Positions 1,096-30,955 of a stretch of 42,857 nucleotides of DNA are shown here, piece after piece. Each line of letters begins with the position of its first letter. Position 1 is the stretch's first letter. The translations under genes were made by a program, and so were the position numbers. Below the pieces are notes generated by a model, which searched no databases, had not been told where the DNA came from, and was given only the letters and a program-made list of their open reading frames with translations. This stretch comes from a virus (Duplodnaviria > Caudoviricetes): the IMG/VR virus record IMGVR_UViG_3300037127_000016, positions 1 to 42,857 of that record. The stretch is one strand, 5' to 3'.

Positions 1096-1106
1096 ACGTC
1101 GCTCCT

Positions 1107-1862: not shown

Positions 1863-1865
1863 GAG

Positions 1866-3372: not shown

Positions 3373-3385
3373 GGTCGGGTCCCGG

Positions 3386-3742: not shown

Positions 3743-3764
3743 GAGCTGATTGGATGTCGTGCGA

Positions 3765-4484: not shown

Positions 4485-4541
4485 GTCTGTCCTCGTGTGA
4501 GCGGTGGTCGGTCGTTACGGGTGCGAGCGTGAACTTGACAA

Positions 4542-6659: not shown

Positions 6660-6663
6660 GGCA

Positions 6664-8004: not shown

Positions 8005-8201
8005 AGTCGCCGCTTCTTCGGTTTGAGGACCAAAGCCCGCTGACGACTTCCGTTCGCGTCGGCTTCCAGGTCCGAACACAGCGAAATCGCGTCTGTGATC
8101 TCGCTGATGTCGCGCTCTTCTACCTCGCGGCCGTCTTCGCCGCGGATCTTCTTCGGGCGTGACAGTGCGTCGGCGATGATCTCCAGGGGACTACCGGCCA
8201 T
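8001..8201 (-). CDS. gpW-like head-tail adaptor
   Basis: 66 aa between TerL and portal; motif KIRGEDGREVEERDISEITDAI. Confidence 0.7.
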   Translation of the reverse strand: MAGSPLEIIADALSRPKKIRGEDGREVEERDISEITDAISLCSDLEADANGSRQRALVLKPKKRRL

Positions 8202-8242
8202 TGGCTGCCCCCTGTGGTCTGGATTCTACATGATCACTCTCG

Positions 8243-10243: not shown

Positions 10244-10403
10244 TTTTTACTCCTTCCCGAATTGACTCACGTAAATTCTAGCAATGATGACTTGTACAGA
10301 TAGTTGCCGCGAAACTGCCGCCACGTGATGTCGTCGCTTCTCTGGAGAGTGCGCTCGATCTATGCTCTGGTGCGCTCGAGTCGTTGTCAGGGCGCCCATC
10401 CCG

Positions 10404-11896: not shown

Positions 11897-12216
11897 GCGC
11901 GCTCACCGCGCGCGGCGTATGCGCGTTGCTCTTGCGCTCGTGTGTGAGCGCTGCACCATGGCCGGTGTGGCTTCCGCGCTCGCGTACAGCCTGCGCGCGA
12001 ACACTGGACGACATGTGTCCGTGGTCCGTACACACTCTCGAGCGCGTGGTCGATTGCCGTTTTGTGGTCGCGGTGGCCGTCACTCTGCACAACGCCATCG
12101 CGCTCGACCAACCATCCCCAGCATTTCTCAGTGTTCCGCCGAACCGTCAACCGCATCCGACGCCAGTGCCAGGCGCCGTTGCTGTCCTTGAACCAACCCT
12201 TGTACGTTGCACTCAT
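11893..12216 (-). CDS. Hypothetical protein with a C-terminal Cys/His zinc-binding-like motif
   Basis: ATGA-coupled on both sides; CSRAGC...WCSAH motif. Confidence 0.55.
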   Translation of the reverse strand: MSATYKGWFKDSNGAWHWRRMRLTVRRNTEKCWGWLVERDGVVQSDGHRDHKTAIDHALESVYGPRTHVVQCSRAGCTRARKPHRPWCSAHTRAQEQRAYAARGERA

Positions 12217-13400: not shown

Positions 13401-13561
13401 CGTGTGCCTTTCTCTTCCAATCGTCGCTGCAATGCCCACCATTCGGCGTTCTCGTTCCATTTGCGCCATGCGGTTGCGGCGATGGCCTCGTGCAGCGCGA
13501 TCCCCGGATCGCACTCAGCGCAGTCGCCACACGTGCATGGCGTCTCACAGTTCCCATGCAT
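13397..13561 (-). CDS. Small Cys-rich hypothetical protein, 54 aa
   Basis: Below the track cut-off. Reads MHGNCETPCTCGDCAECDPGIALHEAIAATAWRKWNENAEWWALQRRLEEKGTR*, and its stop overlaps the Gp37/68 ATG. Confidence 0.5.
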   Translation of the reverse strand: MHGNCETPCTCGDCAECDPGIALHEAIAATAWRKWNENAEWWALQRRLEEKGTR

Positions 13562-14585
13562 AACGCTGTGTTTCCGGTTCGTGGTCGTCGCCCGACCACA
13601 GGCCGGCTTGGTTGTAATTCGCCCGTTCGTCGGTCAAGTCGGGCGGCCCGTCCGGGTGGAGATAATGCTCTGCCAGCACCCGGACGCATGACCGGCCCGG
13701 CACCTTGCGCGCGTTGCCGTAGGACATCATGGGCCGCAGTGCCAGGCGCTCGAATGCTCCGAACGCCTGGCGCACGTAGAACTTGCGCCACCACCGCTCG
13801 AAGCTTTGGCCGGCGAAGTACTCCTCGCGAAAGGTCGCCAGGAACCAATCGGCGAGCGCTTGTCGTCCGGCGTCGGTGTCCCCGGTGCGTGCGCGATAGT
13901 GTTCGCGGTAGCCCTCGCCGCAGACCGCGAGAAGTCGGTGGATGTTCACGTTGCTGCCGGTCCGCGTGAAGGTCTCACCGAGAATCAGATCTACCAGGTT
14001 CATGTGCGCGATCCACAGCCGTTGATAGGCTGGCGTCGAGTTCTTCGGCTTGTAGACATTCCGAGGTCGCTGCACGGATACCAGCCGAAGATCCCCAGCG
14101 ACGTTGCGCCAGTCGATCCCAGTATGCGCAACGAGCTTTTGTTCGCGCGCGCGATCGGCGCTGTATTCTTCGTTGCGGGCGATAGTCGCTCGAACCGCGT
14201 CGTCCTCGATGTCGGTCAACATCACTGGTGAACCGTCCACGCTCCGCACCGCGATGAAGTCGCCATCGCGCACCAGAATACCAACCTGCCGCCCGTGGTT
14301 TTCCTCGACCATGAGCACGTAGCATTGATCCCACCCGTCGCCAAGCCACAATGTCCGCTCATTCCGGCTGGCGTCGGGTGGGATCGGTGGTCTCTTGCAG
14401 GGCGGTATGTCGTGCGTTGGTGTGCTCTGGCCGACCCATGGCGCCCAGCTCTCGCCGTGGTCGATGGGCGTCAACCCCGATGGGCACTGGCCGTGCTTCT
14501 TCAGCGTGCCATCGCGCTTGACGCTGGCCAATCGCTTGGAGCACGTCGGGCACTCGTATTGCGGCAGCTTAATTCGCCGGGTCAT
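13545..14585 (-). CDS. Hypothetical protein with an N-terminal zinc ribbon
   Basis: ATGA overlap with the methylase stop; CPTC...H..C motif; strongly coding-like codon usage. Confidence 0.65.
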   Translation of the reverse strand: MTRRIKLPQYECPTCSKRLASVKRDGTLKKHGQCPSGLTPIDHGESWAPWVGQSTPTHDIPPCKRPPIPPDASRNERTLWLGDGWDQCYVLMVEENHGRQVGILVRDGDFIAVRSVDGSPVMLTDIEDDAVRATIARNEEYSADRAREQKLVAHTGIDWRNVAGDLRLVSVQRPRNVYKPKNSTPAYQRLWIAHMNLVDLILGETFTRTGSNVNIHRLLAVCGEGYREHYRARTGDTDAGRQALADWFLATFREEYFAGQSFERWWRKFYVRQAFGAFERLALRPMMSYGNARKVPGRSCVRVLAEHYLHPDGPPDLTDERANYNQAGLWSGDDHEPETQRYAWEL

Positions 14586-15385
14586 GTCAGCGTGCCCTCC
14601 AGCCGTGCCCGAAGAACGCGGAACGCCAGCGCATGAGTTGCAGGTACCTGCCCGTTTCCCAAGGCTGCAACGCGGTCCACCCGACAGGCCATCCCATGTG
14701 CCACTCGAGCCAGTTCGGGTTCGTCGGTCCACCAAGCCAGTCGTTCAGGGTCGGCGACTTCCTTGGCTTCCCGCCGCCCCCCCGTGAAGCGTCGCGTTTC
14801 GTCGGCGTCGTCTGCATGCGCGCGTATGCCGGCCACTTGCGCATGCTGGGTGACATCATGTTGTCCGCCTTCGTGGGCGTCGGCAAATGCCGGATCGGCG
14901 GCAAGTACCCACATCCTCGCGCGGTGGTGCCACGCACCATTGGAGCACGATCCGAGCACGCCCCACTCCGCATCGAACCCGAGCGCGGCCAAATCCCCGA
15001 GAACGGCATCGAGTCCCCGAATAGCGAGATCTGCGCTGTTTTCCACAAAGACGTATCGGGGTCGAACTTCGCGAACCACGCGCACGAATTCCAACCAAAG
15101 TCCCGACTGCTCGCCCTCGATGCCCGCTCGACCGCCGGCCGGGCTGATGTCCTGGCACGGGAATCCGCCCGAAACAATATCCACTCGTCCAGCCCACGGT
15201 CGCCCGTCGAAGGTGCAGACGTCATCCCAGATGGGAAAAGGTGGCAAGACTCCGTCGTTTTGCCGTTCGATGAGGATCTGGCGGCAATACGGCTCGATCT
15301 CGACGGCGCAAACGGGCCAGTGTCCGAGGATGAGCCCGCCGAGAATTCCGCCTCCAGCGCCTGCGAATAGCTCCAGGACATTCAC
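14582..15385 (-). CDS. DNA (cytosine-5) methyltransferase, alpha polypeptide
   Basis: ELFAGAGG (motif I), GGFPCQDIS (IV), FVENS (VI), HHRAR (VIII) and ALGNGQVP (X). Confidence 0.93.
   Translation of the reverse strand: MNVLELFAGAGGGILGGLILGHWPVCAVEIEPYCRQILIERQNDGVLPPFPIWDDVCTFDGRPWAGRVDIVSGGFPCQDISPAGGRAGIEGEQSGLWLEFVRVVREVRPRYVFVENSADLAIRGLDAVLGDLAALGFDAEWGVLGSCSNGAWHHRARMWVLAADPAFADAHEGGQHDVTQHAQVAGIRAHADDADETRRFTGGRREAKEVADPERLAWWTDEPELARVAHGMACRVDRVAALGNGQVPATHALAFRVLRARLEGTLT
14587..15381 (-). CDS. Overlapping alternative-frame methyltransferase beta polypeptide (EcoHK31I-like)
   Basis: 264-codon ORF nested in another frame of the same strand. Carries WPRSGSMRSG, LPTP and motif IX-like NPNWLEWHMGWPVGWT, which is absent from the alpha frame. 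Confidence 0.7.
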   Translation of the reverse strand: MSWSYSQALEAEFSAGSSSDTGPFAPSRSSRIAARSSSNGKTTESCHLFPSGMTSAPSTGDRGLDEWILFRADSRARTSARPAVERASRASSRDFGWNSCAWFAKFDPDTSLWKTAQISLFGDSMPFSGIWPRSGSMRSGACSDRAPMVRGTTARGCGYLPPIRHLPTPTKADNMMSPSMRKWPAYARMQTTPTKRDASRGGGGKPRKSPTLNDWLGGPTNPNWLEWHMGWPVGWTALQPWETGRYLQLMRWRSAFFGHGWRAR

Positions 15386-16323
15386 CGACTCGCCTGCTCA
15401 TCTGCCGACAACCGCGAGGTAACCTTGACCGCCTGGGCGTCGATCGCACGCTGCTCGGCGGCGGTGAACGTACCCCACTGCCCGCGAATCTCAGGGCCCA
15501 GTGCGTTGAACCCGGCCATGGTCTCGGCCTTGCGCATGCGCGCGATGATGTCTGCCGCGACTGGTCCGATCTGCGCCAGATGATCCCCGCGTGCCCACCT
15601 CGCGAATCGCGCCCCCACCTCGCGAGTGAGTAGATTCGGTGCTGGGCGCAGATACTCGGGATTCTTGACCACGTCGCGTTCGCCTTTCTCTGGCTTCCAG
15701 TCCGGCCGGCCATCTGCTCCCGGTTTCAACAGTGCTAGCCATTTCAACGCTTTCAAAATGCGCGCGCCGGTGGTCGGGATCCAACCGCGGGGGTTGAAAT
15801 TGTCGTCCACCTTCTCGGTCGCTGCGAACGTCAGGATCAGATGAATCGACGCACTTTCGAGCGTGGTTACCAGTTCTTTGCGCGCCGGCTTCACCACCCC
15901 CCAGGCAATGCGGCTGTACGCGTCGAAGTTCGGCTCGGCCTTGTTCTGGCGCTTTGCCTTCTCGCATGCCGCCTGGAATTTCTCCTCCTGCACGCGCTCC
16001 TTCTCGTCCAGCATGTCCTGGTGTTCTTTCTCCATGCCGTCGAGAATCAGAACCGTGTACCCCTCGCGCGAGGCATCCTTGATTGCCTCGCTGATCTTGG
16101 CGCTCGTGTACGGCGGTGACATGTGGTCCACGTCAAAATCATACCCGTGATACTCCGAGGAGCGCCGAGCGTCCATGTCCACCATGGCCACGTGGCCACC
16201 GAGCACGTCTGTGATACCAAGAGCAAGAAGAATCGAGCTCATACTCTTGCCGGTTCCCGTGTCGCCGGCAATCCCCAATTTGAGCCACTGCGTTTCCCAT
16301 GTCGCGCGTTTGAATCTAGCCAT
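15382..16323 (-). CDS. AAA-family ATPase (Sak4-like, recombination-associated)
   Basis: Start MARFKRA; Walker A GDTGTGKS, Walker B VLILDG; adjacent to a RecE-like nuclease. Confidence 0.8.
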   Translation of the reverse strand: MARFKRATWETQWLKLGIAGDTGTGKSMSSILLALGITDVLGGHVAMVDMDARRSSEYHGYDFDVDHMSPPYTSAKISEAIKDASREGYTVLILDGMEKEHQDMLDEKERVQEEKFQAACEKAKRQNKAEPNFDAYSRIAWGVVKPARKELVTTLESASIHLILTFAATEKVDDNFNPRGWIPTTGARILKALKWLALLKPGADGRPDWKPEKGERDVVKNPEYLRPAPNLLTREVGARFARWARGDHLAQIGPVAADIIARMRKAETMAGFNALGPEIRGQWGTFTAAEQRAIDAQAVKVTSRLSADEQASR

Positions 16324-17227
16324 GCTGGTTTTCCTTGTGCTCGAGCCATCCTGGCGCTCCCAGGATTGGCGGTTGATAGTACCCGGGCCATTCGTCGAGG
16401 TGAACGCCGCGCGCCCATGCCTCGCACGCCTCGCGCCAGAGTCGGACCCCATGCGCCTTGAATAAGCCGTCCTGCTCGGCCGCTGTTACTGCGTATGGCG
16501 GCTTTGATTCGACGAACACCCATACCCACACGACACGTCCGGCGTAGGCCGGGAACGCGGCCTCCAGCGCCTCGGTGTAGCACGCCGATTGTACCGCGTA
16601 CCCCTCACGCGCGATGTTTTCCGCCATCTTCCGCGGATGCGCGTCACCGCGCTTGCTGCGCACTTTCAGGTCATACGCGATGATCCCACCCCTGCGAAAC
16701 TCCACGTGGTCGAGCCTCGCTCGCACCCAGATCGGGCCTGCGTGCGTCGTGGTCAACTGGTGCAGAATCGTGAGCTCGCTGTATCGCCCTCGGTCGGGGG
16801 CATGCTGGAGATACACGGGGGCCGGGTCGCCGTCACACGTGCGTGCCTCCAGGTTTGCCTTGATACCCGCTGCAGTCATGACCATCGACTCCCACTCTTT
16901 GCGCAGAATCGGCACCTTCCCCCGGTCTCTGGCCTCGCGTCGGGCGGTCTGCGCGGCCTTCGTGCGATAGTTGGCGTAATCAAGAATCTCTACATCTTCG
17001 CTGCTGTCAAGCAGAAGGAGCTCGTGAAAAAGCGCGCCTTCGTCTTTGGCTTTCGTGTGTTCGTCGATGTCGCCGACGCCCGGCCGACCCATGAGCGCGC
17101 ACCCGTCAATGACCATCGCCCTGGCCCGCGTCGATGACAACGACGGTTTCGGGCATGGATCTGCGTGGTATTCGCTCGCAGGCATATCGACGTGGACGTG
17201 CACGCCATCCGCAATCGGCGGCATCAT
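16316..17227 (-). CDS. RecE/exonuclease VIII-like PD-(D/E)XK nuclease (DUF3799-like)
   Basis: EYHADPCPKPSLSST, GALFHELLL, VRARLD, YDLK, GYAVQSACY and FVESKPPY. Confidence 0.88.
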   Translation of the reverse strand: MMPPIADGVHVHVDMPASEYHADPCPKPSLSSTRARAMVIDGCALMGRPGVGDIDEHTKAKDEGALFHELLLLDSSEDVEILDYANYRTKAAQTARREARDRGKVPILRKEWESMVMTAAGIKANLEARTCDGDPAPVYLQHAPDRGRYSELTILHQLTTTHAGPIWVRARLDHVEFRRGGIIAYDLKVRSKRGDAHPRKMAENIAREGYAVQSACYTEALEAAFPAYAGRVVWVWVFVESKPPYAVTAAEQDGLFKAHGVRLWREACEAWARGVHLDEWPGYYQPPILGAPGWLEHKENQHG

Positions 17228-17421
17228 CGCGTTGTTCCCTGCAGGTCGCAAGAACCCTCAAGCGCCACCATATCGCGCCAGAGCTTGTCCACCGTCTGAC
17301 CATTGGCTCGAGCTGTACTCTCGACGACCCGCCGCATTCGGGCGGATAGCGCTCGCAGCCAGTCGTCGGCGCTGTTGTACGCCGATGCGCTGGTCAAGGT
17401 CCTGTGTTGTTCATCGCTCAT
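17224..17421 (-). CDS. Hypothetical protein, 65 aa
   Basis: ATG at 17421; its stop overlaps the start of the RecE-like gene. Confidence 0.5.
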   Translation of the reverse strand: MSDEQHRTLTSASAYNSADDWLRALSARMRRVVESTARANGQTVDKLWRDMVALEGSCDLQGTTR

Positions 17422-17448
17422 TCTGCGCCCTTTGTCGTGGTTTCGTCG

Positions 17449-17494
17449 TTGACGCTGCCACAATCTGCGCTGTACTGTCAAGCCATGATTGACA
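17449..17494. promoter_or_regulatory. Divergent promoter/operator region
   Basis: On +: TTGACG-N18-TACTGT ending 6 nt before ATG 17485 (probably leaderless). On -: TTGACA at 17476-17481. A TGTCAA-N7-TTGACA palindrome straddles the start codon. Confidence 0.5.
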
Positions 17495-17727
17495 AGCATC
17501 TAGCCGGTGACTGGGTCCGGTATTGGAAATACCGTACTCGCACCGACAGCAACATATCCGCATCGATCGTCCTGGGTATCAGTCCATCAAGCCTATCAGC
17601 CCTACTTAGTTCGGCTGGTTGGTCGTCGTCCAGCACGGTGATTCCAGAGAAGCTATGCAGCGCTCTCAAGATCACGATGAGTGAGTACCTGGCAGGGCCA
17701 CCCGACCGCCCGGTGTGTGAGTCGTGA
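17485..17727 (+). CDS. Cro/CI-like HTH regulator
   Basis: ASIVLGISPSSLSALL...EKLCSALKITMSEYL pattern; divergent from the recombination operon. Confidence 0.6.
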   Translation: MIDKHLAGDWVRYWKYRTRTDSNISASIVLGISPSSLSALLSSAGWSSSSTVIPEKLCSALKITMSEYLAGPPDRPVCES

Positions 17728-18314
17728 GCCGCCTTGACGAATACGCCGCACTTGAGCAGAGATATCAGGGGGCGCTCGCTCACATTTCTGCCATGCGCGA
17801 GCGCGGCGCAGCATTACAGCAGAGCGAGTTGTCACTGCGACAGCGAGCCTATGACGCTGAACGACGACTGGCCGCCGTGCGGTTGCAGCCTGCGCACTAC
17901 GTCGGGGACATCGTGGCTCGCGATATGCTGGTTATACTGGCCGCTGTGCTGCTGTATTGGCCTCTGACTGCACGCCTGCGCGCCATGCTGGACCATACGC
18001 ACTTTCCCGGAATGTCCCCATTTTGGGATGCCCTCGTGGCCATGCCGCCAATGAGCGATGATGAGGCGCGTGTTGATTACATCGTGCGCTACATCTGCGA
18101 TCGATGGCCCGCCACTTGTGAGAGTCACGTTCTGCAGGTCATCGTCGACATGGTGCTACAACATGGTCTATGCCGGGATTCCGGCCCTGCGAATAGATGG
18201 GCTGGCGAACGCGCTGCGATAAAGCGATTGGTTCTCGCTCACCGAGCAGTTGCGCTGATGGACGAGATTCAGGCTCGATACGCTCGAAAAATCGAAGGAT
18301 TACTTCACGGCTAA
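17724..18314 (+). CDS. Hypothetical protein, possibly DnaB N-terminal/DnaG C-terminal-like helical domain
   Basis: Coiled coil followed by VILAAVLL...L...L....F.....W.AL pattern; GTGA-coupled to the HTH gene. Confidence 0.45.
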   Translation: MSRLDEYAALEQRYQGALAHISAMRERGAALQQSELSLRQRAYDAERRLAAVRLQPAHYVGDIVARDMLVILAAVLLYWPLTARLRAMLDHTHFPGMSPFWDALVAMPPMSDDEARVDYIVRYICDRWPATCESHVLQVIVDMVLQHGLCRDSGPANRWAGERAAIKRLVLAHRAVALMDEIQARYARKIEGLLHG

Positions 18315-18970
18315 TCATCGGTTTCAATGGCGGCAGCTTCCGGCCCATGCAAGGCGCCAAACACGATCGCAGCGATCGCTTTCAGCGCGTCGTACTGAGC
18401 TTGCTGATCGGCCTCTAGCCCCATCGTGTATAGCCCGGTGGTCTCGTCGCGTATCAGGTCGAGCGCATCCCGCATCGTCAGCCTGACAGGCTGACGATGC
18501 GGGATGGCCTCGGGCGTCGGCGTGTGGCGCTGCAACCACTCCAGCTGCTCGTAGGCGCCGACCGACCACCAAGCATGTTCGGCGTTGATGGCCCGTAGTT
18601 TGTCCTCTGCGGCGTTGCGCTGCTGGCGCAACACCGCAGCCTCGTGGCCGACCGCTTCCAACGCTGCGGCAGCGTTTCGAAACGGGCCCGGCTCGGCCGT
18701 CATCTCCAGCCCGGTGACCAGATCGGCCTGCGCGCGCAAGGATTCAACGAGCTGGCGAATGGAAGGCTGCGGCGTCTGCTCGGCGCCGTCGGCGGTGTTG
18801 GCCCGCTCGAGCAGCTTGAGCGCGGTGTGGCGCAAGTGGTCGGGCCCGGCATCCTCGCATAGGGCATCGATGGCCGTCTGGAGGTGCGCGGGGTCAGCGT
18901 GGGTGCGCAGGTTGCGGATCAGGTCCGCGATCTCTGCGCCGGTCAAGGTGGCGGTGGTCTTGGTCTCCAT
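18311..18970 (-). CDS. Hypothetical helical protein
   Basis: GAGG RBS and ATG; strongly GC3-biased codons. Confidence 0.7.
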   Translation of the reverse strand: METKTTATLTGAEIADLIRNLRTHADPAHLQTAIDALCEDAGPDHLRHTALKLLERANTADGAEQTPQPSIRQLVESLRAQADLVTGLEMTAEPGPFRNAAAALEAVGHEAAVLRQQRNAAEDKLRAINAEHAWWSVGAYEQLEWLQRHTPTPEAIPHRQPVRLTMRDALDLIRDETTGLYTMGLEADQQAQYDALKAIAAIVFGALHGPEAAAIETDD

Positions 18971-19002
18971 GGTTTCCTCAGTGAACGGTCAGCGCTCGTG
19001 TG
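18971..19002. repeat. 32-bp direct repeat copy A (hairpin plus RBS)
   Basis: GGTTTCCTCAGTGAACGGTCAGCGCTCGTGTG, 30/32 identical to 20223-20254. Confidence 0.85.
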
Positions 19003-19196
19003 GGGGCACCGGTGGTTTCGGGCTTGGGAATCCAGATCACATATCGTCTACAGCCCTTGCACATGGCTTGCTTGTGCGTCTTGCTCATGCGTTCGGCCCA
19101 GTCGTGCCAGTTGCGATAACCGACGGGCGCTGGCGTGTGCATGTCAGCCAGCGGACACTCGCTCGGTTGAAGGCCGATGCGCGGGATGTTCATCAC
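18978..19196 (-). CDS. Small hypothetical protein
   Basis: HTPAPVGYRNWHDWAE...HKQAMCKGC motif; coupled to the upstream ORF. Confidence 0.6.
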   Translation of the reverse strand: MMNIPRIGLQPSECPLADMHTPAPVGYRNWHDWAERMSKTHKQAMCKGCRRYVIWIPKPETTGAPTRALTVH

Positions 19197-19408
19197 TTAC
19201 CACCAATCTCGACCGCGTCAGCCGGGGCGTTGGCGCTGAACTGTACGCCGATCTGGTCGTCCTGCGTCCACTCGTGATCACCCTCATGCTCGGCTGCCAG
19301 CATGCATGTGACCGACGACTGGTAATACAGCGCTCGGATATGGGCTGGGCTCCACAAGCCGTGTTGCTCTTCCACGTGCTCGGCGCGGTCCTTCCAGCAG
19401 CGGCTCAC
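19193..19408 (-). CDS. Small hypothetical protein
   Basis: GTGA overlaps at both ends; C..L.AEHEGDH motif. Confidence 0.55.
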   Translation of the reverse strand: MSRCWKDRAEHVEEQHGLWSPAHIRALYYQSSVTCMLAAEHEGDHEWTQDDQIGVQFSANAPADAVEIGGK

Positions 19409-20217
19409 TTCACCACCGCGATCCACTTGCTACGGGACTCAACAGAGCGTTGAACCTTGCCCTGAGACTCGGCCACCTCGAGGGCAGCGCGGACAATGGC
19501 AGCGCTGTTGGTCGCCAGATACAGCCCGCCGATGTCGTCGGGGGCGGGAGACAGCTGTGCCAGCTCGTTGCGCAGCGCCGTGGGAGTGCGGCCTACATTG
19601 TGCGGCTTGCCGTCTGAGTCACACAGACCGGCGACCACTGCACGGATCACGTCCGCCTGCAGCGCCGCAGTCATGCGGCTCCAGTTGGGCGACTCAACCC
19701 ACTTGCTAAGTATGTTTGCGCGGTCATTGGCCGCCCCGACGACCGTCGCCAGCCTAGCCGGAGTGACCCGCACACGCTTGGACGCGGCCACCGGCGTCTC
19801 GTCGGCCGCGTCGTAGATGACCTCGCCAGCGGTGGCGTCCGCAACGGCCTCTTGCTGCGCCAGATATGATGCCTGCAGTTTGTGTGCGACGTCCTCGAGA
19901 GCGTCGTCGGACATGTCTGACGGCGTCACCGGCTCCAGCGGGTGTCTGGCCAGGTCGAGCCGGCGCTGCAGGTTGTCGCGCAAGCACAGCAGGTGGTCGC
20001 GCTCCGCTTCTATCAGCTGGAGGCGCTGCTCTTGCCCCGCCAGCTGAGCGCGCACCTGCCGGGCTTCCGCGTGGGCGATTGCCAACGCGCCAGCCTGGTC
20101 GATAAGCATATCGCCCATGGCAGCGGTGATCTCGCTTTGCACCTTGCGGCGTTGCTCGAGGGTTGTGGCGTTGTCGAGGGTCGCCAGGGATTCAGTGATC
20201 GTCGTAAGGAGTGGCAT
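19405..20217 (-). CDS. Hypothetical coiled-coil protein
   Basis: GGAG RBS and ATG; coding-like codon bias. Confidence 0.7.
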   Translation of the reverse strand: MPLLTTITESLATLDNATTLEQRRKVQSEITAAMGDMLIDQAGALAIAHAEARQVRAQLAGQEQRLQLIEAERDHLLCLRDNLQRRLDLARHPLEPVTPSDMSDDALEDVAHKLQASYLAQQEAVADATAGEVIYDAADETPVAASKRVRVTPARLATVVGAANDRANILSKWVESPNWSRMTAALQADVIRAVVAGLCDSDGKPHNVGRTPTALRNELAQLSPAPDDIGGLYLATNSAAIVRAALEVAESQGKVQRSVESRSKWIAVVK

Positions 20218-20222
20218 GGTGT

Positions 20223-20254
20223 GGTCTCCTCAGTGAGCGGTCAGCGCTCGTGTG
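20223..20254. repeat. 32-bp direct repeat copy B (hairpin plus RBS)
   Basis: GGTCTCCTCAGTGAGCGGTCAGCGCTCGTGTG. Confidence 0.85.
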
Positions 20255-20265
20255 TCTCGTGTCTA

Positions 20266-20871
20266 TCAGGTTGCGAAGTGTGCGCGAACATCGGCCAAAG
20301 ACAATGAACGCGAGTGGTGTACTACGTTAGAGCGCGCAATGCTCGCCGCACAAACCTCGGCGGTGAGATCCCACCCGAGAAACTTGCGGCCGCTTTTGCC
20401 ACCCTGGGCAAGCGGAACCGGTTGCAATCTGCTCATGATCGCGGGCGGAATAGCGTGGCTGTGCTTTTCCCACAGGTCCAGTAGCCGACCGTACTCCAGC
20501 CAGTAGAGGCGCTTCTCGCCCTTGTTGCCTTCGCCACGTGCCCGCCACACGAACAACGCGACCACGGCACAGCCACCGATTTGAGCGACCTCTGCAAGGT
20601 GTTCATGCTGGTGATCGGCAAGTCGCTTGACCGTGAAGCCCGGAACCTGGCCCGAGTCCAGGATGGGCATTTGCTTGGCCTCGACTCGTAACGCTCGCCC
20701 TCCTGGTAGAACGGCCACCAGGTCGCACGGCTTGCGCCGCTGAAATTTCATCGTGCGCCCGGTCGGATCCCAGGGTGAATCCGCAATCTTGTGCAGTCCG
20801 CCGACGCCAGCGGCCTGGAGACTCCGCACGAGAATCGGCGTGAGTTCGGCTTCTTTACGCTGTTTCGCCAT
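20266..20871 (-). CDS. Holliday junction resolvase-like PD-(D/E)XK nuclease (RecU/VRR-NUC-like)
   Basis: E...HKIAD...KPCDLVAV...GRALRVEAK...LADHQHEHL...GGCAVV. Confidence 0.72.
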   Translation of the reverse strand: MAKQRKEAELTPILVRSLQAAGVGGLHKIADSPWDPTGRTMKFQRRKPCDLVAVLPGGRALRVEAKQMPILDSGQVPGFTVKRLADHQHEHLAEVAQIGGCAVVALFVWRARGEGNKGEKRLYWLEYGRLLDLWEKHSHAIPPAIMSRLQPVPLAQGGKSGRKFLGWDLTAEVCAASIARSNVVHHSRSLSLADVRAHFAT

Positions 20872-21793
20872 TGCTGTGATATCGATACCGTTGCTTGGAC
20901 GGCCTCGAAATGCGTGTCTCTGGATTCGTTTCCATGTCCGCCTTGAGTGCCGCTCTGATCTCTGCGCGGCGCTCGTCATCCGTTCCAGCGTCGGTGACGG
21001 GCGCGCCCGGTCCACCCTCTGGCCATTTCGCGCTAATGGTTTTCACTGTCAGGCCTTTATCGCTGGCTTGTCGCAGAATTGCTATGGCGACATCGAGAAC
21101 GGTGGTCGCGTCGTCCGGGTGTTCCGCTGGCGGTTCCTCCGAAGTGACCGACTTGCTTGCGAGCGCGACCCGGTCAACGCCCACCATGACCCATGCGTCC
21201 GACGCCTCGACCAACGCGCGCACCGTCGGCGCGTTTACCTCGATACCCTTGTCCATTGCGGACTCGAGCAGGTCGTAGATAGTCACGCCATCATCACCGG
21301 CGTCGGCGACGAGAACGCCGATGGCTTCGGTCAGCTGGCGGATCGTCTCCGCTTTCTCGTCCTCGACGGTCAGCGGAAGTTCGAGATTCGTTTGGCTTTC
21401 CCGCTTCGTAAGCGGCCGGCTGAACTCCTCGACGACCTCGCCGTCTTGACTGCCGCCGACCCTCACCACGACCTTGCGGCCGAGCGGATATCTGGCCTTG
21501 TCGCGATAGTCGTGCCAGATCTCGACGAGGCCCGGTTTTATCTCCTCGCGCATCCGGTTTTCCTCGCGGATGACCTGGGCCTCCTGTCGCGCACGCTTTT
21601 CGGCCTCCTTCGCCGCTTTGAGTTCGGTCGACGCAAGTAGCACCTTTATGGCCGCCGCTTCTTCGCGGGCCAGGGCGTCGTCACTCCTGGCAGCCATCTG
21701 CTCGAGCGTCAGCTGGTAACTCACGTCGCGGGTTTCTTTGCCCTGACTCACACAGTCCTCGCCATGCTTCGGCGGTACAAATCGCTCACTCAT
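20855..21793 (-). CDS. Hypothetical protein (coiled coil plus possible winged-helix domains)
   Basis: GGAG RBS; long ORF with strong codon bias. Confidence 0.7.
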   Translation of the reverse strand: MSERFVPPKHGEDCVSQGKETRDVSYQLTLEQMAARSDDALAREEAAAIKVLLASTELKAAKEAEKRARQEAQVIREENRMREEIKPGLVEIWHDYRDKARYPLGRKVVVRVGGSQDGEVVEEFSRPLTKRESQTNLELPLTVEDEKAETIRQLTEAIGVLVADAGDDGVTIYDLLESAMDKGIEVNAPTVRALVEASDAWVMVGVDRVALASKSVTSEEPPAEHPDDATTVLDVAIAILRQASDKGLTVKTISAKWPEGGPGAPVTDAGTDDERRAEIRAALKADMETNPETRISRPSKQRYRYHSNGETA

Positions 21794-22115
21794 CGTAATC
21801 TCCAAGCGCGTGATCGATATCCCGCGCTGTCAGTTTGGCCTTCGCCAGGTGTTCGTCGCATCCCTCAAGCAGCGCGCTGGTCGGGATTCCCAGGACATAC
21901 GCGATCGGTACCAGCGTCTCGACCCTGGGCGACTGGCCCCGGTTCTCGATGTTCGATATCGACCCCTGTGATGTCCGCCGGAACATCCCCGGACGGCGGG
22001 CGGCCAGTTCGCGCAGCTTGGCGGCGAGCTGGTTCTGTGTGATGCCGGCGGCCATGCGGTAACGCCTCAGGTTGCGCCCGACTATCCTGGCGAGGCTGGT
22101 TGGCTTATTCGTCAC
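21786..22115 (-). CDS. XRE-family HTH transcriptional regulator
   Basis: VGRNLRRYRMAAGITQNQLA...SQGSISNIENRGQSPRVETLVPIAYVLGI; probable GTG start at 22115. Confidence 0.88.
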   Translation of the reverse strand: MTNKPTSLARIVGRNLRRYRMAAGITQNQLAAKLRELAARRPGMFRRTSQGSISNIENRGQSPRVETLVPIAYVLGIPTSALLEGCDEHLAKAKLTARDIDHALGDYDE

Positions 22116-22269
22116 TGAGATATCACACAACCTGAAATCGGGGAATATGTCAAGCGCGAATAGGGACATAGTAGGCGATTGGCGACCAGTAGATTGGGAG
22201 TCAATCTCACAAAACAGCCCCGTAACCCGCTGGTTTTATTGCTGGTCGATAGTCGCGCGGCCGAGTAAC

Positions 22270-22972
22270 TGGCCACGAGCCGATTTTCAGGCCTCGCACA
22301 AGACGAACCCGGGGATTACCGCATCACCCATACTGGGACACCTGTTGCCAGGTGGCGGCTCGTGGCTCGTTGCCAGCTCGGCGTACCGAGTCCAGCTCGA
22401 TCCCTACATCGGAATTCCGCACACGTGTCGTGCCCAGCGTATCAGCGCTGGCGGTCGCATGACCGCGACGTAACGACAGCTGACAATCAAGGGTGTTTCC
22501 TGTTGTCGCTGTGCGCAGTCGCGGTCGACCATGGCTGCACGGCCGTGAGTCGGCCTGATCGCGGGTCGTCCGGGTGAGACGCCCGACCCCATCTTCCGTG
22601 TAAGGTGAAGCTGTGCACTCCCGATCACCATGGGTGGTCGAGATCCCGCTGCCCCGTGTCGCGGGTATTGGCGTGCACGCCGTCGAGAGGGCCACTCCGG
22701 CCCCATGTCGTGGACCGGGTTTGTTGCGGTCCCGGTGCAGTATACGCGCCCCGTTGCGGGCGTTGACGGTCGCCAGTGCGACCATGCGCGTGTGAGTGTG
22801 GGTATCATCGCGGTATCTGCGCGTCCGCGTTTCGGGCTTGGTTCGCGCGCTCGCAGGCCTGGCACGGTCGCCGTGACCATCGCTCGCGCGACCGCCCGTA
22901 CTCGAGCAAGGCCAGCCGAAAAATCTCGCCCCGGCACTGGTGGCAGCGAAGGATCAGGTGCATGGTCTGATC
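22270..22972. ncRNA. Candidate large structured non-coding RNA (~700 nt), strand uncertain
   Basis: No credible ORF. Contiguous hairpins and long-range stems, e.g. 22272-82/22356-66 (11 bp), 22339-54, 22377-90, 22434-51, 22461-69/22518-26, 22714-36, 22768-83 and 22952-72. Confidence 0.5.
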
Positions 22973-23222
22973 ACCTTTGCCTCGGGGGCGTCGGCTGGAT
23001 CACCCGGGCTGGTGGCAGCTGCGATCGCGCGGCTCTCGCCCGCAATCGGTTGATCGTCAGGAGCATCGGCAGCACTAACGGCCATAAAACAAACGAGCAC
23101 ACATAGACGCTGTCCGAATTGGCACCTGCGGATTCGATCTGGGGTGCCGCGACCACGAGGCACACGCCAGCGCCGACGCCCCAGCCGACCACGCCGCCGA
23201 GGACGATGATCGCGGCGATCAT
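22971..23222 (-). CDS. Small two-TM membrane protein (possible holin)
   Basis: Hydrophobic segments MIAAIIVLGGVVGWGVGAGVCLVVA and VCSFVLWPLVLPMLL with a basic tail; ATGA-coupled. Confidence 0.6.
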   Translation of the reverse strand: MIAAIIVLGGVVGWGVGAGVCLVVAAPQIESAGANSDSVYVCSFVLWPLVLPMLLTINRLRARAARSQLPPARVIQPTPPRQR

Positions 23223-23512
23223 CGGTTCACGTGTTCGATGCACGCGATGGCGGTCACCAGTAGTCGGTCGGTTGTTTCTGCGCGCTCGATCTGGTCACCG
23301 GCCACGCCGGCGGCCACGCCGGCGGCCACGTCAGTCTTCCGCCGGCGAAGAAGCGCGTCCGCCAGTGCAGCACCGCGCGCGCCGATGGCGTCCGGGTCGA
23401 GGCCAGCCTCGCGCAGCTGCTGATCGACATCATCGATCGGCGTGCTCCTGTCGAGCGGGTTGCCAGTGTCAGAGCGATCGGGTACGGTCTCGTTATCTTG
23501 TTGCGTTTTCAT
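23219..23512 (-). CDS. Hypothetical protein, 97 aa
   Basis: ATG 9 nt downstream of a promoter-like element; motif VDQQLREAGLDPDAIGARG. Confidence 0.6.
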   Translation of the reverse strand: MKTQQDNETVPDRSDTGNPLDRSTPIDDVDQQLREAGLDPDAIGARGAALADALLRRRKTDVAAGVAAGVAGDQIERAETTDRLLVTAIACIEHVNR

Positions 23513-23521
23513 AGGCCGACG

Positions 23522-23550
23522 AGAGTGGCACCGAGAGGCGCCAAAGTCAA
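23522..23550 (-). promoter_or_regulatory. Sigma70-like promoter
   Basis: TTGACT-N17-CACTCT on the minus strand. Confidence 0.5.
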
Positions 23551-23576
23551 CAGCCCCCGCCCACCCGGGGGCTGTT
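23549..23576. terminator. 11-bp stem hairpin (terminator or operator)
   Basis: AACAGCCCCCG-CCCACC-CGGGGGCTGTT, overlapping the -35 box above. Confidence 0.55.
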
Positions 23577-24184
23577 CCATTTTCGGCGACTGGCGGCGAA
23601 TTCAGCGCGTTTGGCGGACAGTCTGCGCCCTGGTCTGGTGAGAAATATAGCATCCGCAAATAATTTCGCTTGACGAATTCGGCCGATTTATGGCTGGATT
23701 GAAATTGCCGATGAGAGTTACCGAAACACACCGCGGACGACCTGGCGTACTCCGCGCGAATGGCCATTCTGGCCAGCTCTCGTCGGCGCCGGCCGTGGGC
23801 GATGAATCGTCGCCCAGTTCGCAAGAGCATCGGCCACCGCGCGAAGTTCGTGCCTCACACGCAAGGCCGTTCGTGCCTCACGCCCTACGTCGTCAGCCTT
23901 GTGCTGACCTCGCAGGCCCCCCTGGAGGTCAAGCCGTCGGAGGGAACGCCGATGGTAAGTCGCCTGAGATCCTCGGCTCGGTAACTGCCGCAGTCGGAAC
24001 CGGTGCAAGTCCGGTGGGTGGTTCCGGAGTCTGGAGTGCCGGAAGATTTCTGACTCTGTTGACCGGTCGTGTGAAGCACCCTCGCCGACATCAACACCAC
24101 GGCCGAACACCTGATCAGCGAGATGGGCGGCGATGGCGGCGCCGCGTTGATGGAAGCCGGCCTCGAACTGCAGAAGGCTCGAGG

Positions 24185-24790
24185 TCAACGAGCAGTGCGA
24201 ACGGCCTCGACCAAGCGGCGGCGGAAGTGAGCTGGCAGAGTCTCACGAGCGCGCTCTCGAGCAATTTGTTCGAACGGAAACCGGGCGCGTACTCCCTGCC
24301 GGTCGAGCAACCGGAACGCGAGACGCACACGTCGGCCGCCGCGGCCATATCGCCGGAGCACCAACCGCTCACCGGATCGTCGACCGCGACGGAATCGCCG
24401 CGGCATCTTCGACCGCGACACAATGAAGTGCCGGCCCTTCGCAAGCAACTTGCGAGGCCAGCGACCTCGACCGACCACCCGGTTCTTCGTACCGCGCATC
24501 CGCTGCGACGGGACCGCGGTACGAGTTCGCCGGCCACCCACGACCTGGTCGAGCAAGTACTTGCGGGTATTACCAACCACCGCTTGCGGGTTTGGACCCT
24601 TCCTGGATTTTCGCACCCGATAGCCGCGCTCGAGGTGTTTGCGGCGAATCGTGAAGTGCTTACGGCCTGCGTCAACGAGCGCTTGGCGCGCATCGAACGC
24701 GGCGTCATTCAGCGCACGTGACGCCGCGAACTGCATTTGCTTCAACGCGTTGCGAGGAGTTTGGAATTTGAGCCCCATGACCTTGGCCAT
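24185..24790 (-). CDS. Very basic gpZ-like phage neck/tail protein
   Basis: QMQFAASRALNDAAFDAR...YLLDQVVGGRR...RFPFEQIA pattern; start ATG at 24790. The upstream 200 codons of the track ORF do not look coding. Confidence 0.65.
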   Translation of the reverse strand: MAKVMGLKFQTPRNALKQMQFAASRALNDAAFDARQALVDAGRKHFTIRRKHLERGYRVRKSRKGPNPQAVVGNTRKYLLDQVVGGRRTRTAVPSQRMRGTKNRVVGRGRWPRKLLAKGRHFIVSRSKMPRRFRRGRRSGERLVLRRYGRGGRRVRLAFRLLDRQGVRARFPFEQIARERARETLPAHFRRRLVEAVRTAR

Positions 24791-24842
24791 TGTAGGTATC
24801 CTTCTTCTGACGTGTGCCAACCTGATGATCGCATGGTTGTCA

Positions 24843-25070
24843 ATGTCTGTGTCACAGAAAACGGCGCAAATGTCGGCGGTGGCCACGATTTCAAACCGCG
24901 CGATCACGGCGCTGATCAACAGTCGTTTCGACGTCGACGCCGCCACTCGCGACGTCCTCGCCGACCTGGACCATACCGCGCGCGATATATTGATGCGGCG
25001 AGAGGGGGCCAACTTCGACGCCTGGGTGCGCAACCTGGTGAGGCAGCACGCAGAACAGGTCCCCAAATGA
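24843..25070 (+). CDS. Hypothetical protein
   Basis: Short ORF with coding-like codons, divergent from the gpZ-like gene; start uncertain. Confidence 0.45.
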   Translation: MSVSQKTAQMSAVATISNRAITALINSRFDVDAATRDVLADLDHTARDILMRREGANFDAWVRNLVRQHAEQVPK

Positions 25071-25101
25071 GTCGCCTTGGTCGTCCATTTTAGACGATTC
25101 G

Positions 25102-25278
25102 GCGCAAGTTCTGCGCGCAAGTTGTCGTGGCGCGCAGCTACCCACCATTCCCCCGGGCTCCAGAGAGGACCCGCGGCCAGCTTCCCGGCTGGCCTAAAAC
25201 CGAGACATGAGGCCGCAAGTTCGGCCCAGAAGGAGAGCGTTTCATGAGCCATCGCAGCAGACGGATCAAGCGCAAGTG
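25102..25278 (-). other. Putative cos packaging site (cosQ plus cosN plus repeats)
   Basis: Minus-strand GGGTCCT (25166-72) matches lambda cosQ. About 20 nt downstream is a GTGG-N11-CCAC dyad (25127-45). Four CGCAAGT repeats lie nearby. Confidence 0.5.
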
Positions 25279-25495
25279 GAGGGCACAGCGACTGCCCGGC
25301 CAATCCCTCAAGCAATGGGCCTACCGAGCATTCACGATTGATGTGGACGTTTGCAAATGGTTGGAGGTGAAGACCGGCTTTATCTGGTTTTGACACTCAC
25401 TCAACCTACGGACCGCCACCCGTTCACCATGACCCGCTTTCTAGCACCAGCAACCCGGACAGATGGCACTCGTGTGAACAACGAAAGGAATATGC

Positions 25496-26143
25496 ATGAC
25501 CTGGACAATCAGCGAGAAAAACGGTGTAAGCGTATGCGGTCACATCTTCGGCGGCAATCCATACTGGAAGCGTTACCCGTCTGATCAAATCCCGGATGAT
25601 GTACAGCGGGCGCTTGACGTTCAACCCACAGCCGAAATCAGCACGACCGTGGACGAGTTGCGTGCATTCGCATACCGACGTGGCCTGGCCAGGATATGCG
25701 GCCATGTGGTTCAGCTCGTCCACGTCGATGCGTATTGCGCGCACGTCTCACCCGGGGCGTTGGTGATGCGCGTGGTTCCTGATCCGTCGTCGAATGACGT
25801 CCTCACTATCCGCGACGATACCGGGGTGACGATATTCTGTGGATGGGATATCACCGATTGCTCCGATATCAGGATCACTGACTGGGAGCATCGCGAGGAC
25901 GGTTGTACAGGGTTCGGCCCGCTGCCTGTTGCAATGTGGTTCGATGAGAACGGCTATGGTCCCTCGCCGTTCGAGATTTCCATCCTGGGAATCAAAGGGC
26001 GGCGAGAGGGCTCGATCCGGCTGGTCCGCATGGAGTTCCCTGACTTCCCGATCGAGGGTTGCGGTGGCCTCGACGCCGACCAGTTGCGCGCGCTGATTCA
26101 CCAGGCAAAGCAAGCCTTGGCGTGGTTGGAGGGCGGCCAGTGA
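25496..26143 (+). CDS. Hypothetical protein
   Basis: AAAGGA RBS and ATG; 215 aa. Confidence 0.7.
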   Translation: MTWTISEKNGVSVCGHIFGGNPYWKRYPSDQIPDDVQRALDVQPTAEISTTVDELRAFAYRRGLARICGHVVQLVHVDAYCAHVSPGALVMRVVPDPSSNDVLTIRDDTGVTIFCGWDITDCSDIRITDWEHREDGCTGFGPLPVAMWFDENGYGPSPFEISILGIKGRREGSIRLVRMEFPDFPIEGCGGLDADQLRALIHQAKQALAWLEGGQ

Positions 26144-26240: not shown

Positions 26241-26594
26241 ATGGTGGACGATCGCGAACGAGTGCGCCGCATTGTGGCTCATCGGCTCCAGGTGGCGCGC
26301 GAGCGAGCGGGATACACCCAGAAATCCGCGGCTCAAGCGGTCGGCGTATCGGCACACACAATGTATCTCTATGAGCGGACCATTGGCGGAACGGTGCAAC
26401 CTCTGCACCGGCTTGTCGCTTTGGCGGCTTTGTATCGCGTCAGTCTCGACGACCTGGCCGGTACTCGCTCGGCCGTTCACCAGACCCTATTGCGAGCTCG
26501 CGCAGTTGATGCTGAGCTCGGAACTCGCCTTGCCGAAGAACGCACCAGACCCTTGAAACCGGCCGTTGTGCCACCGAGTAAGAAACATGGCTGA
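26241..26594 (+). CDS. XRE-family HTH regulator
   Basis: RLQVARERAGYTQKSAAQAVGVSAHTMYLYE...LVALAALYRVSLDDLAG. Confidence 0.88.
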   Translation: MVDDRERVRRIVAHRLQVARERAGYTQKSAAQAVGVSAHTMYLYERTIGGTVQPLHRLVALAALYRVSLDDLAGTRSAVHQTLLRARAVDAELGTRLAEERTRPLKPAVVPPSKKHG

Positions 26595-27360
26595 ACCAGC
26601 ATATCAGAGCAAATCCGCAATCATGGCGGCACTCGGGTGCAGCAAGCACACACTAGACGCCGCGATCAAGGCTGGCAAGATCAAGAAGCGCCAAGCGAAG
26701 GGACAGAAGCACGCGAAGTATCACATAGGCGATGCGCGTGCATGGCTGGAGGACAACCCGTCGCGAAAGTACACGAAGCTGGACGCGTCCGAGGTGACGC
26801 TCGCCGAGGCCGCCATGTTCCTCGGGCTCGTCGAGCGCTCGGTGCGGCAACATGTATCTAGCGGATTCTACGAGCTCACATGGGCGAGCCTGAAGGCATA
26901 CAAGGCCGAGAAGGATGCCGGGATCGCGAAGACCGACCCGCGCCAGGATCGGAGCGATATCGCTATCGCTTTGGAGCTGGACCGAAAGCGAGCAGACCTG
27001 GCAAAAAAGCGCGCCGAGGCCGATATGGCCAGGCGGAAGAACGCGCGCGAACAGGGAGACACCTGCAGCCGATCACAGGTTCGGGCGGCATTCGCTCGCC
27101 TGGCAGCAATCCGGGTCGCGAGTGAACAACGGCTACTGCAGCAGCTCGTGATCCACCTCGTGCAGGAGCTACTCCGTGCAGGTATCGGGGTCGGCCGGGA
27201 GCAGGATGTCGCCGGTATAATCCGGTCTGTTGGCGCTCGCGAGATCCAGACCCTTCGTGATGACGATGTGGCCGCTCTCCAGAACCAGGAAGGTCTACCG
27301 GGTCTGGTGGACGAGGCTCGGCGGCTCGCGGCGACTCTGGCAGCATACAGGGTGTCATGA
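26587..27360 (+). CDS. Putative terminase small subunit (Nu1-like) with two HTH repeats
   Basis: SKSAIMAALGCSKHTL...GKI...YHIGDARAWL, a second HTH TLAEAAMFLGLVERSVRQ, then a Nu1-type coiled coil KKRAEADMARRKNAREQGDTCSRSQV. Confidence 0.68.
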   Translation: MAEPAYQSKSAIMAALGCSKHTLDAAIKAGKIKKRQAKGQKHAKYHIGDARAWLEDNPSRKYTKLDASEVTLAEAAMFLGLVERSVRQHVSSGFYELTWASLKAYKAEKDAGIAKTDPRQDRSDIAIALELDRKRADLAKKRAEADMARRKNAREQGDTCSRSQVRAAFARLAAIRVASEQRLLQQLVIHLVQELLRAGIGVGREQDVAGIIRSVGAREIQTLRDDDVAALQNQEGLPGLVDEARRLAATLAAYRVS

Positions 27361-30212: not shown

Positions 30213-30955
30213 CACTCTGCTCGCGGAACGCGAATGCGCGGCCCGCGTCGCCAAGGTCTATCTTTCCGTGCGGACTCGTGCGGCACTACTGTGCACGTTG
30301 GCACGGGCGACCCCTGCTCGCGGTCGATACACGTCGCAAGGCATTGGTATGGCAGACCCCAGCATGGCGCCTTGTGATTCTCTTGGTTGCGACGCCGTGC
30401 GCTGATCACTCGGTCGCTGTGCTCTTGCATGCGCCCGTCCGGCGTATCGCTCACACATTGCTTGCGCAGAGCGGCGCAAGCCGAGAGACTCTCGCGCACT
30501 GGGATCCCTTGTCCTCGGAGATCCGATTTGCAGAGCGTCTCGAACTCGTAGCATGCATCAGATGACTGTACGATCCCGGCCCCACAGCCGACACACGCGA
30601 CCATCAAAGCGATCCCGACATATCGAAGCACGCGACCGTGCATCACCTTGGCCGCTCGCAGCGCATCGACGGCGCGGTTGCCGGCGCGGCGATAGTGGAA
30701 ATACCACCGCGACACGGCAAACGGTTCGATCACGATCTCGTCCAGTTCGCGTTGTATTTGGCTTGGAGATGTTTGCTCGATGTCCCGCTCTATTTCGCGA
30801 CCGAGGTCGTCGCGCAAGCAATGATCGGACAGTTCGGCATCTACCCGATTTATCTCAAATCGGTAGAAATACAGATTACGTGACCGTATCTCGTCCGGAT
30901 CATAGGTGCCGTCATCGTATGTGCTCATAATGTTGTCGATGTTGTTCAGGTTCAT
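30212..30955 (-). CDS. Membrane-anchored protein with an acidic N-domain and a Cys-rich C-domain
   Basis: Acidic N-terminus, internal hydrophobic VGIALMVACVGC segment, several paired cysteines. Confidence 0.6.
   Translation of the reverse strand: MNLNNIDNIMSTYDDGTYDPDEIRSRNLYFYRFEINRVDAELSDHCLRDDLGREIERDIEQTSPSQIQRELDEIVIEPFAVSRWYFHYRRAGNRAVDALRAAKVMHGRVLRYVGIALMVACVGCGAGIVQSSDACYEFETLCKSDLRGQGIPVRESLSACAALRKQCVSDTPDGRMQEHSDRVISARRRNQENHKAPCWGLPYQCLATCIDREQGSPVPTCTVVPHESARKDRPWRRGPRIRVPRAE

Follow-up and report, generated by a model that had tools for sequence, protein, structure and literature searches.

A long gene-free stretch in a compact phage genome

The window analysed here, 42,857 bp in length, is the whole of an IMG/VR virus record and carries terminal repeats. 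Its genes include those for a GpA-type terminase, portal, baseplate and tape-measure proteins, a GH25 endolysin, methyltransferases and XRE regulators, which make it the genome of a contractile-tailed dsDNA phage, in which transcription, according to a codon-model gene map, runs mostly on the minus strand. Only three close non-self terminases were found (48-69% identity, all from Logan), and those from IMG/VR and GTDB reach at best about 26-35% identity. The one hint of a host is a single ESM Atlas structure row, commonest in Myxococcota and coming from a low-confidence model. Both sequencing runs that contain the stretch 22260-23000, hereafter the element, are labelled wetland metagenome, and the record may derive from one of them; no RNA run is among the runs listed as containing it. 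Models for tyrosine integrase and resolvase had no match in the genome (controls positive in 14/14 and 13/14 cases), and neither had the reverse transcriptase model PF00078 (4/14 controls positive) nor the HNH model (11/14), in line with the earlier statement that no reverse transcriptase or homing endonuclease lies alongside the element. ARAGORN reported no tRNA genes in the whole window, and an Rfam search found no tRNA or tmRNA in the element.

Several observations concern the genome at large. There are two XRE regulators and a third, weak one, yet no integrase or resolvase match. A terminase-small-subunit-like gene (PHROG 57, HTH_17 region) at 26587-27360 (+) lies 16 kb from the large subunit at 8243-10180 (-), on the opposite strand. 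A minor tail gene (PHROG 1924, 24185-24793, minus strand) stands isolated in the regulatory region, distant from the tail block, and a plus-strand ORF begins across its start codon. A PAPS-reductase-like gene adjoins a DNA methyltransferase at 10404-11896, possibly forming a DNA-modification module, and further methyltransferase frames overlap at 14582-15385.

The initial annotation had described 22270-22972 as the longest gene-free part of the genome, and the codon-model gene map, family matches and the sequence together bear this out: 22116-22970 is free of genes, followed in length by 23513-24184, and 855 gene-free bases are unusual for so compact a genome. All nine candidate ORFs overlapping the stretch were negative under a codon model trained on the phage itself, and the stretch scored as non-coding in all six frames, with the nearby HTH and 97-aa ORFs clearly positive and the 83-aa ORF weakly so. 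The ORFs 22324-22785, 22404-22937 and 22630-23106 have no PHROG match. Nor did a conserved protein, which by the annotation's own account would refute its proposal, emerge from the overlapping ORFs, as scans of viral and metagenome contigs gave no confirmed relative; one match to an overlapping ORF, in contig L288, falls at a terminase junction and was dismissed as chance. The 740-base stretch is likely to be without an encoded protein. Of the 703 bases in 22270-22972, 458 are G or C (about 65%).

The positions of the features are given in Table 1. The HTH gene heads the leftward block of genes, and the element is flanked by two inverted CGCTTGAC sites (22143-56 on the minus strand and 23667-80 on the plus strand), each followed by CCGATTT, between which lie the minus-strand promoter-like site, the 97-aa ORF, the 83-aa hydrophobic ORF and the element. 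The 97-aa protein had 10 non-self matches, mostly to a weak motif of 35-65 residues (approximately P(I/V)xxVDxELRxxGxDPxxIGxRGxxL) that is common to unnamed proteins of 97-369 aa; an ESM Atlas search with the 97-aa and 83-aa ORFs gave sub-threshold leads only.

Table 1. Features at the locus, with domain z-scores given as plus/minus strand.
Feature	Position	Strand	Remarks
XRE-type HTH regulator	21786..22115	-	PHROG 8, Pfam HTH_31 and HTH_3; frame open to 22169
TTGACA-bearing site before the HTH gene	22143..22156	-	inverted repeat of the TTGACG site at 23667-23680 (+)
Weak candidate promoter TTGGCG-17-CAATCT	22179..22207	+	rank about 271 in sigma70-type scan; would read into the element
Candidate large structured ncRNA, ~740 nt	22260..23000	+ (tentative)	non-coding; folding z; no Rfam match
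Domain 1: multi-arm junction closed by 11-12-bp stem	22260..22400		z -4.05/-3.04
GNRA hairpin, loop GCAA, 6 bp	22339..22354	-	arises in 2.2% of 500 shuffles
UACG-loop hairpin, 5 bp, G-C closed	22377..22390	-	arises in 7.4% of shuffles
Domain 2: long bulged hairpin and short hairpin	22434..22531		z -5.8/-6.4
Domain 3: nested multi-way junctions	22534..22741	+	z -3.2/-2.8
T-loop-type hairpin CGGG-UGAGACG-CCCG	22571..22585	+	arises in 4.6% of shuffles
Domain 4: weakly defined	22745..22910	+	z -0.4/-1.1, at chance
Domain 5: long interrupted hairpin	22912..22998		z -3.6/-2.9
83-aa ORF, two hydrophobic stretches	22971..23222	-	weak PHROG 11608 (E 0.003) and 4955 (E 0.005)
97-aa ORF	23219..23512	-	good codon score
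Promoter-like site TTGACT-17-CACTCT	23522..23550	-	9 nt before the ATG at 23512

Two kinds of repeated site were noted in this region. A motif of the CCGATTT/CGATCATCAGG type recurs at 22141 (-), 22280 (+), 23683 (+) and 24832 (-), following TTGAC sites, and in palindromic form at 30845-30863; one of the three XRE-like proteins may use it as an operator. AACAGCCCC opens a hairpin beside a minus-strand TTGACT at 22213 and again at 23549-23576, the second being an 11-bp GC-rich hairpin, and the two sites look like a duplicated promoter-plus-hairpin module. The locus resembles the lambda-type immunity region, with its PL, PRM and PR, in that two divergent TTGAC sites enclose a small leftward unit and XRE regulators lie close by, but differs in that no repressor gene lies between the sites, no integrase was found, and a 740-nt folded stretch occupies the interval instead.

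Predicted folding and loop motifs

All nine stems that the initial annotation listed are present as exact reverse complements. Its description of the stretch as almost continuously self-complementary was not sustained: this is largely an effect of GC content and perfect stems are at chance level, just as its own caveat, that high GC inflates the number of short stems, had anticipated. With a 40-nt limit there are 9 perfect stems of 6 bp or longer, against 5.8 in shuffles (9 was reached by 7/40 shuffles and 16/57 tiles), and with a 220-nt limit there are 12 stems of 7 bp or longer, against 10.7 in shuffles; palindromes and single-mismatch stems are as frequent as in shuffles and other tiles. 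An array of restriction-site decoys was considered and rejected, there being 21 six-base palindromes where the tiles have a mean of 15.5 and a maximum of 25.

A folding z-score, one of the checks that the initial annotation had proposed, came to -2.46 (plus) and -4.44 (minus) for 22270-22972, with none of 20 shuffles per strand folding as well. For 22260-23000, bounds picked post hoc once helices had been seen, z is -4.42 on both strands, and none of 112 plus-strand or 150 minus-strand shuffles is as good; under DNA parameters the value is -4.41. Among 28 other 741-nt tiles (56 strand values, with three shuffles per tile and a pooled SD) none reaches -4.42, the best being -4.29 and -3.76, and none lies below -3 on both strands at once. 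When the pair span is limited to 150 nt the region attains a z of only -2.2/-2.3, and 9 of 55 other tiles do as well or better on one strand or both. Without that limit it comes out, narrowly, as the most structured of the tiles tested, and its predicted folding is only modestly exceptional. Two coding stretches, 13170-14569 and 17814-18769, are also strongly folded by prediction (z -3.5 to -4.3). Shuffling nulls, as a passage of PMC11234323 cautions, may mislead covariation tests.

These results bear directly on an explanation that involves no selected RNA function at all, in which the stretch is a GC-rich regulatory spacer or a decayed gene and the stems follow from its composition. Stem and palindrome counts at chance, the want of a known family, the post hoc bounds, and the existence of other tiles, mostly coding, with similar local z and of one at -4.29 globally speak for it, and the related fragment described below has indels that are in-frame on balance. 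We nonetheless regard this explanation as unlikely, given a fold better than all shuffles on both strands, three canonical loops within the element, changes in the related fragment that mostly keep pairs in the drawn helices and have no codon bias, and the unusual length of the gene-free interval.

The predicted structure can be divided into five modules. Four have z-scores of roughly -3 to -6, domain 4 folds no better than chance, and all of these z-scores rest on post hoc bounds. In domain 1, positions 22377-81 may pair either with 22261-65 or with 22386-90, giving two predicted folds. Domain 3 is predicted to be closed by the helices GCTGCAC/GTGCAGT and GGCCG/CGGCC, and its plus-strand helices contain G-U pairs; domain 4 has an 11-bp helix with five G-U pairs that is predicted on the plus strand only, and domain 5 overlaps the final 28 nt of the 83-aa ORF. 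Many of the helices are Watson-Crick and could form on either strand. Complementary loop-loop matches of at least 5 bp number one on the plus strand and two on the minus strand, which is the shuffle level in this single-sequence test.

Three of the genome's 18 canonical-loop hairpins fall inside the element, which makes up 1.7% of the genome and would be expected from shuffles to hold about 0.3; the loop definitions are our own, and at least one match elsewhere is a plain DNA palindrome. The two minus-strand loops reported in the initial annotation were confirmed as CACCTG-GCAA-CAGGTG and CTCGG-TACG-CCGAG, the latter being closed by G-C, where a loop of the UACG type is normally closed by C-G. 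The third is the T-loop-type hairpin of domain 3. In FMN and cobalamin riboswitches the T-loop core is YGNRA, with the consensus (YGNRA)NY, according to a section of bioRxiv 10.1101/2022.12.26.521914; the element's 7-nt loop UGAGA-CG has this core followed by two bases that would be bulged out, but departs from the consensus in its last base, which is G rather than Y, and no riboswitch model matches the element.

The rightward TTGACG site is closely followed by another gene-free stretch with predicted structure, 23705-24184. Its plus-strand fold is a nested domain (z -2.3, 0/100 shuffles as good; minus strand -1.7, 7/100). The stretch contains a T-loop hairpin at 23999-24015 (ACCGG-UGCAAGU-CCGGU) with the full (YGNRA)NY and a 13-nt direct repeat at 23846/23869, and has no Rfam or phage match. 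It may be a further structured RNA or a leader for antitermination.

Searches for relatives and comparison with known RNA families

Blastn of the element against phages gave no match, and against plasmids it gave 11 records with matches of 24-57 nt, four of which were inspected and none of which extends; a 40-nt match before a PPE gene in Mycobacterium was treated as chance. Viral contigs selected by the HTH gene, a gpZ-like tail gene, the terminase or the overlapping ORFs held no relative of the element (the best terminase alignment was about 33% identical), and the same was true of viral contigs selected by two DNA patterns, the first giving 120 loci from 12/64 parts, none of them similar by blastn or nhmmer, and the second 12 loci. 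In metagenome contigs 190 and 597 pattern stretches yielded no confirmed relative. The element was found in none of 80 GTDB terminase loci at 28-35% identity, and DNA searches of 1,404 bacterial GTDB genomes from four phyla were likewise negative (0/401, 0/401, 0/301 and 0/301). The longest exact match elsewhere in the phage's own genome is 15 nt, which was treated as chance rather than as an antisense target. Literature listings and the openings of abstracts contained no description of the element, and two of its hairpins are absent from six supplementary files of the phage structured-RNA catalogue PMC10690425 (files 1, 2 and 4 lay outside this search and may bear on novelty).

A pattern built from the element's own T-loop hairpin picked out look-alikes, which are therefore a selected set. 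The hairpin GGG-UGAGACG-CCC is co-oriented with neighbouring tRNAs in an unrelated phage (contigs L291, L294 and L300, near-identical) and in a Nonomuraea plasmid, whose tRNAs were identified by eye. In L291 the T-loop hairpin is followed by GTGCAC-54 nt-GTGCAT, a spacing equal to that in the element. L291 was rejected as a homologue, since the blastn E is about 0.2, the topology differs and the Nonomuraea copy is without the second domain. As an observation in its own right, a tRNA-like element that lacks annotation and has a UGAGACG T-loop occurs at L291:638-830 (-), in an IMG/VR phage, and at about 1460-1545 (+) of L307, in a Nonomuraea plasmid, each time within a tRNA array and with 43 nt identical between the two; in L291 it is followed by a second folded module of 66 nt, and L291 has no Rfam match.

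The initial annotation could not assign the element to a family, and this holds at the level of Rfam 15, where no match at gathering falls in the element and a search at E<=10 gave six weak matches, all outside it. GOLLD and ROOL are described in parts of PMC12286853 as large phage RNAs of open function that form nanocages and are often near tRNA islands, many GOLLD RNAs exceeding 800 nt and ROOL RNAs, from phages and prophages, measuring about 600-660 nt with many helices and multiple pseudoknots. The element shares with GOLLD its large size, of a similar class, its phage origin and its freedom from ORFs, but the GOLLD model (RF02032), which represents the conserved 3' domain, has no match at gathering, at E<=10 or in a single-family search (controls weakly positive, 5/14), the genome has no tRNA, and the cage and covariation are features of GOLLD. 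It resembles ROOL in being, at about 740 nt, a phage-encoded stretch with many predicted helices; in contrast to the multiple pseudoknots of ROOL its loop-loop complementarity is at chance in the single-sequence test, and the ROOL model (RF03087) has no match at gathering or at E<=10, with a single-family search blank for the element and the controls alike. By sequence, the element is outside the GOLLD and ROOL families, and what it has in common with large ornate non-coding RNAs is its size, its lack of ORFs and a predicted multi-junction structure.

A catalytic RNA was also considered, whether a self-splicing intron (permuted or lacking an ORF) or a large ribozyme of some other kind. Domain 5 of group II introns is marked by an AGC triad and an AY bulge, and circularly permuted forms without a reverse transcriptase exist, according to portions of PMC8637638. 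Likeness to these introns is confined to the size and the multi-junction, multi-domain architecture of a large RNA without its own reverse transcriptase. Against it, the group II model RF00029 has no match at E<=10, with four candidates scored (controls positive 10/14), nor has the group I model RF00028 (controls positive 8/14), inspection by eye found neither a domain-5-like hairpin with the triad and bulge nor an interrupted gene, and reverse transcriptase and HNH matches are missing from the genome, so that we consider a catalytic RNA very improbable.

Strand, transcription and possible function

The sole related sequence comes from another wetland run (X2) and consists of two overlapping 151-nt pieces of depth 2, probably one duplicated read pair, which cover 22616-22888. 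The first piece has four differences (147/151 identical over 22616-22766), and the second has 11 differences and eight gap positions, with a cluster of indels in domain 4. Of 13 listed substitutions nine were scored, the four within the re-aligned interval 22821-22846 being left out. The nine show no codon bias, no more than 3/8 changed codons being synonymous in any of the six frames, and the indels sum to +6, which is compatible with coding. Eight of the nine fall on paired positions of three hand-drawn helices, where, on the plus strand, six keep or create pairs (four G-U to Watson-Crick, one U-A to U-G and one C-A mismatch to C-G) and two break them; two-sided compensatory changes are absent from the scored substitutions. 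An unbiased test on the window's own ensemble placed 2/9 changes at G-U sites (p 0.15-0.18). In the G-U helix of domain 4 the X2 piece has A-U in place of two G-U pairs. On the minus strand the window's helices have A-C mismatches at four of the changed positions, and the helix 22796-22822 is unformed. The preservation of pairs is suggestive and falls short of covariation. X2 pieces elsewhere are partial (20/20 on 1-20000, and no other full-length piece in 20000-26000), a cover that gives no ranking of the element against genes and hence no claim of greater conservation than in its flanks.

Evidence on the strand is divided. The plus strand has the T-loop hairpin, which is co-oriented with tRNAs elsewhere, the G-U exchanges in X2 and the plus-only 11-bp G-U helix, and the minus strand has the GNRA and UACG hairpins, unpaired bases richer in A (37% against 25% on the plus strand) and the better promoter, and it is also the strand on which most of the genome is transcribed. 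Counts of G-U pairs were rejected as a strand test, since they are below the shuffle level on both strands (29 against 33.7 on plus, 14 against 20.5 on minus). As the plus-strand clues lie in domains 3-4 and the minus-strand clues in domain 1, both strands are possibly used. The initial annotation leaned towards the minus strand, and this stands in part, for the loops and the promoter; tentatively, we give the plus strand an even chance and the minus strand a slightly smaller one, with a small chance that both are used. As for the promoter itself, the site at 23550-23522, from which transcription would cross two ORFs before reaching the element, ranks 11th (tied) in a genome-wide sigma70-type scan and is missing from a stricter scan, which returned no promoters at all in 21900-24300.

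A minus-strand transcript from this promoter would consist of the two small ORFs and a folded 3' trailer of 750 nt acting in cis, where it might stabilise the mRNA or set read-through into the leftward HTH, recombination and packaging block, perhaps with the two alternative pairings of domain 1 as a switch. Such a trailer would make use of the good promoter match, the minus-strand hairpins and A-rich unpaired bases, the prevailing direction of transcription and the minus-strand z of -4.42, as well as a weak hairpin followed by U's at about 22211-22238 and a location between two inverted TTGAC sites that is reminiscent of a phage regulatory switch. It leaves the plus-strand T-loop unexplained, its helices accommodate the X2 changes poorly (the four A-C mismatches and the unformed helix), and a terminator scan found nothing within or just beyond the element, and we hold it to be somewhat unlikely.

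Clues on both strands could also point to a sense/antisense pair resembling a type I toxin-antitoxin system, with the 83-aa hydrophobic ORF carrying a folded minus-strand 3' UTR and being silenced by an overlapping, convergent plus-strand RNA, and the overlap of domain 5 with the end of this ORF would suit such a pair. Typical type I parts are smaller than 83 aa and 740 nt, and toxin families have no match here in Pfam or PHROGs; the arrangement is improbable. Even more so is an element acting as DNA, whether a single-strand origin, a cruciform array or a packaging site, by extrusion or by folding in single-stranded form. The z under DNA parameters, the many Watson-Crick helices formable on either strand and a mode of replication left open by the lack of an integrase or resolvase would be in its favour. 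Yet 22270-22972 contains no iteron-type repeats, it is GC-rich and lacks an AT-rich core, the phage is a tailed dsDNA phage with a GpA-type terminase, and G-U-type exchanges and RNA loop motifs suit RNA better, so that the ssDNA replication origin offered earlier as an alternative finds no support.

Our preferred reading, itself tentative and held at clearly less than even confidence, is that the element encodes a structured non-coding RNA that stands by itself, about 740 nt long and with five predicted domains, probably on the plus strand, acting in trans in the manner of GOLLD and ROOL and belonging to neither. It would be transcribed from the weak promoter at 22179-22207, divergently from the HTH gene and convergently with the two small minus-strand genes; the T-loop in domain 3 might mediate tertiary packing, and the RNA might serve as a compact scaffold or decoy, as has been proposed for GOLLD and ROOL. 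This reading is supported by the non-coding frames, a fold that beats shuffles, the lack of Rfam matches, the three canonical loops and the X2 pattern; against it count the presence on the minus strand of two canonical loops (GNRA and UACG) and of the better promoter, the chance level of stems and loop-loop matches, and the lack of tRNA genes. That the element has a functional RNA structure of any kind we consider probable. The structured-RNA candidate of the initial annotation thus holds for its non-coding nature, its above-shuffle folding, its canonical loops and its lack of an Rfam match, and not for covariation, the comparison consisting of one fragment with one-sided changes. The case rests on one genome and one related fragment, and the strand is tentative; this ORF-free, well-folding locus outside all Rfam 15 families can reasonably be put forward as a candidate new large phage RNA, a new class not being demonstrated.

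Known large ornate phage RNAs are few, namely GOLLD and ROOL. A bolder version, which we find doubtful, would make the element the founding member of an undescribed class of ornate phage RNAs of about 740 nt, packed by a T-loop and self-assembling, placed in a regulatory switch region and paired with a second T-loop RNA at about 23705-24184, so that a phage with no integrase would settle its life-cycle decision partly through two large RNAs. If true, a new large RNA in a GC-rich, tRNA-free myovirus, between divergent regulatory sites, would widen this kind of RNA, and the fact that it lies there and not within a tRNA island would suggest a regulatory setting.
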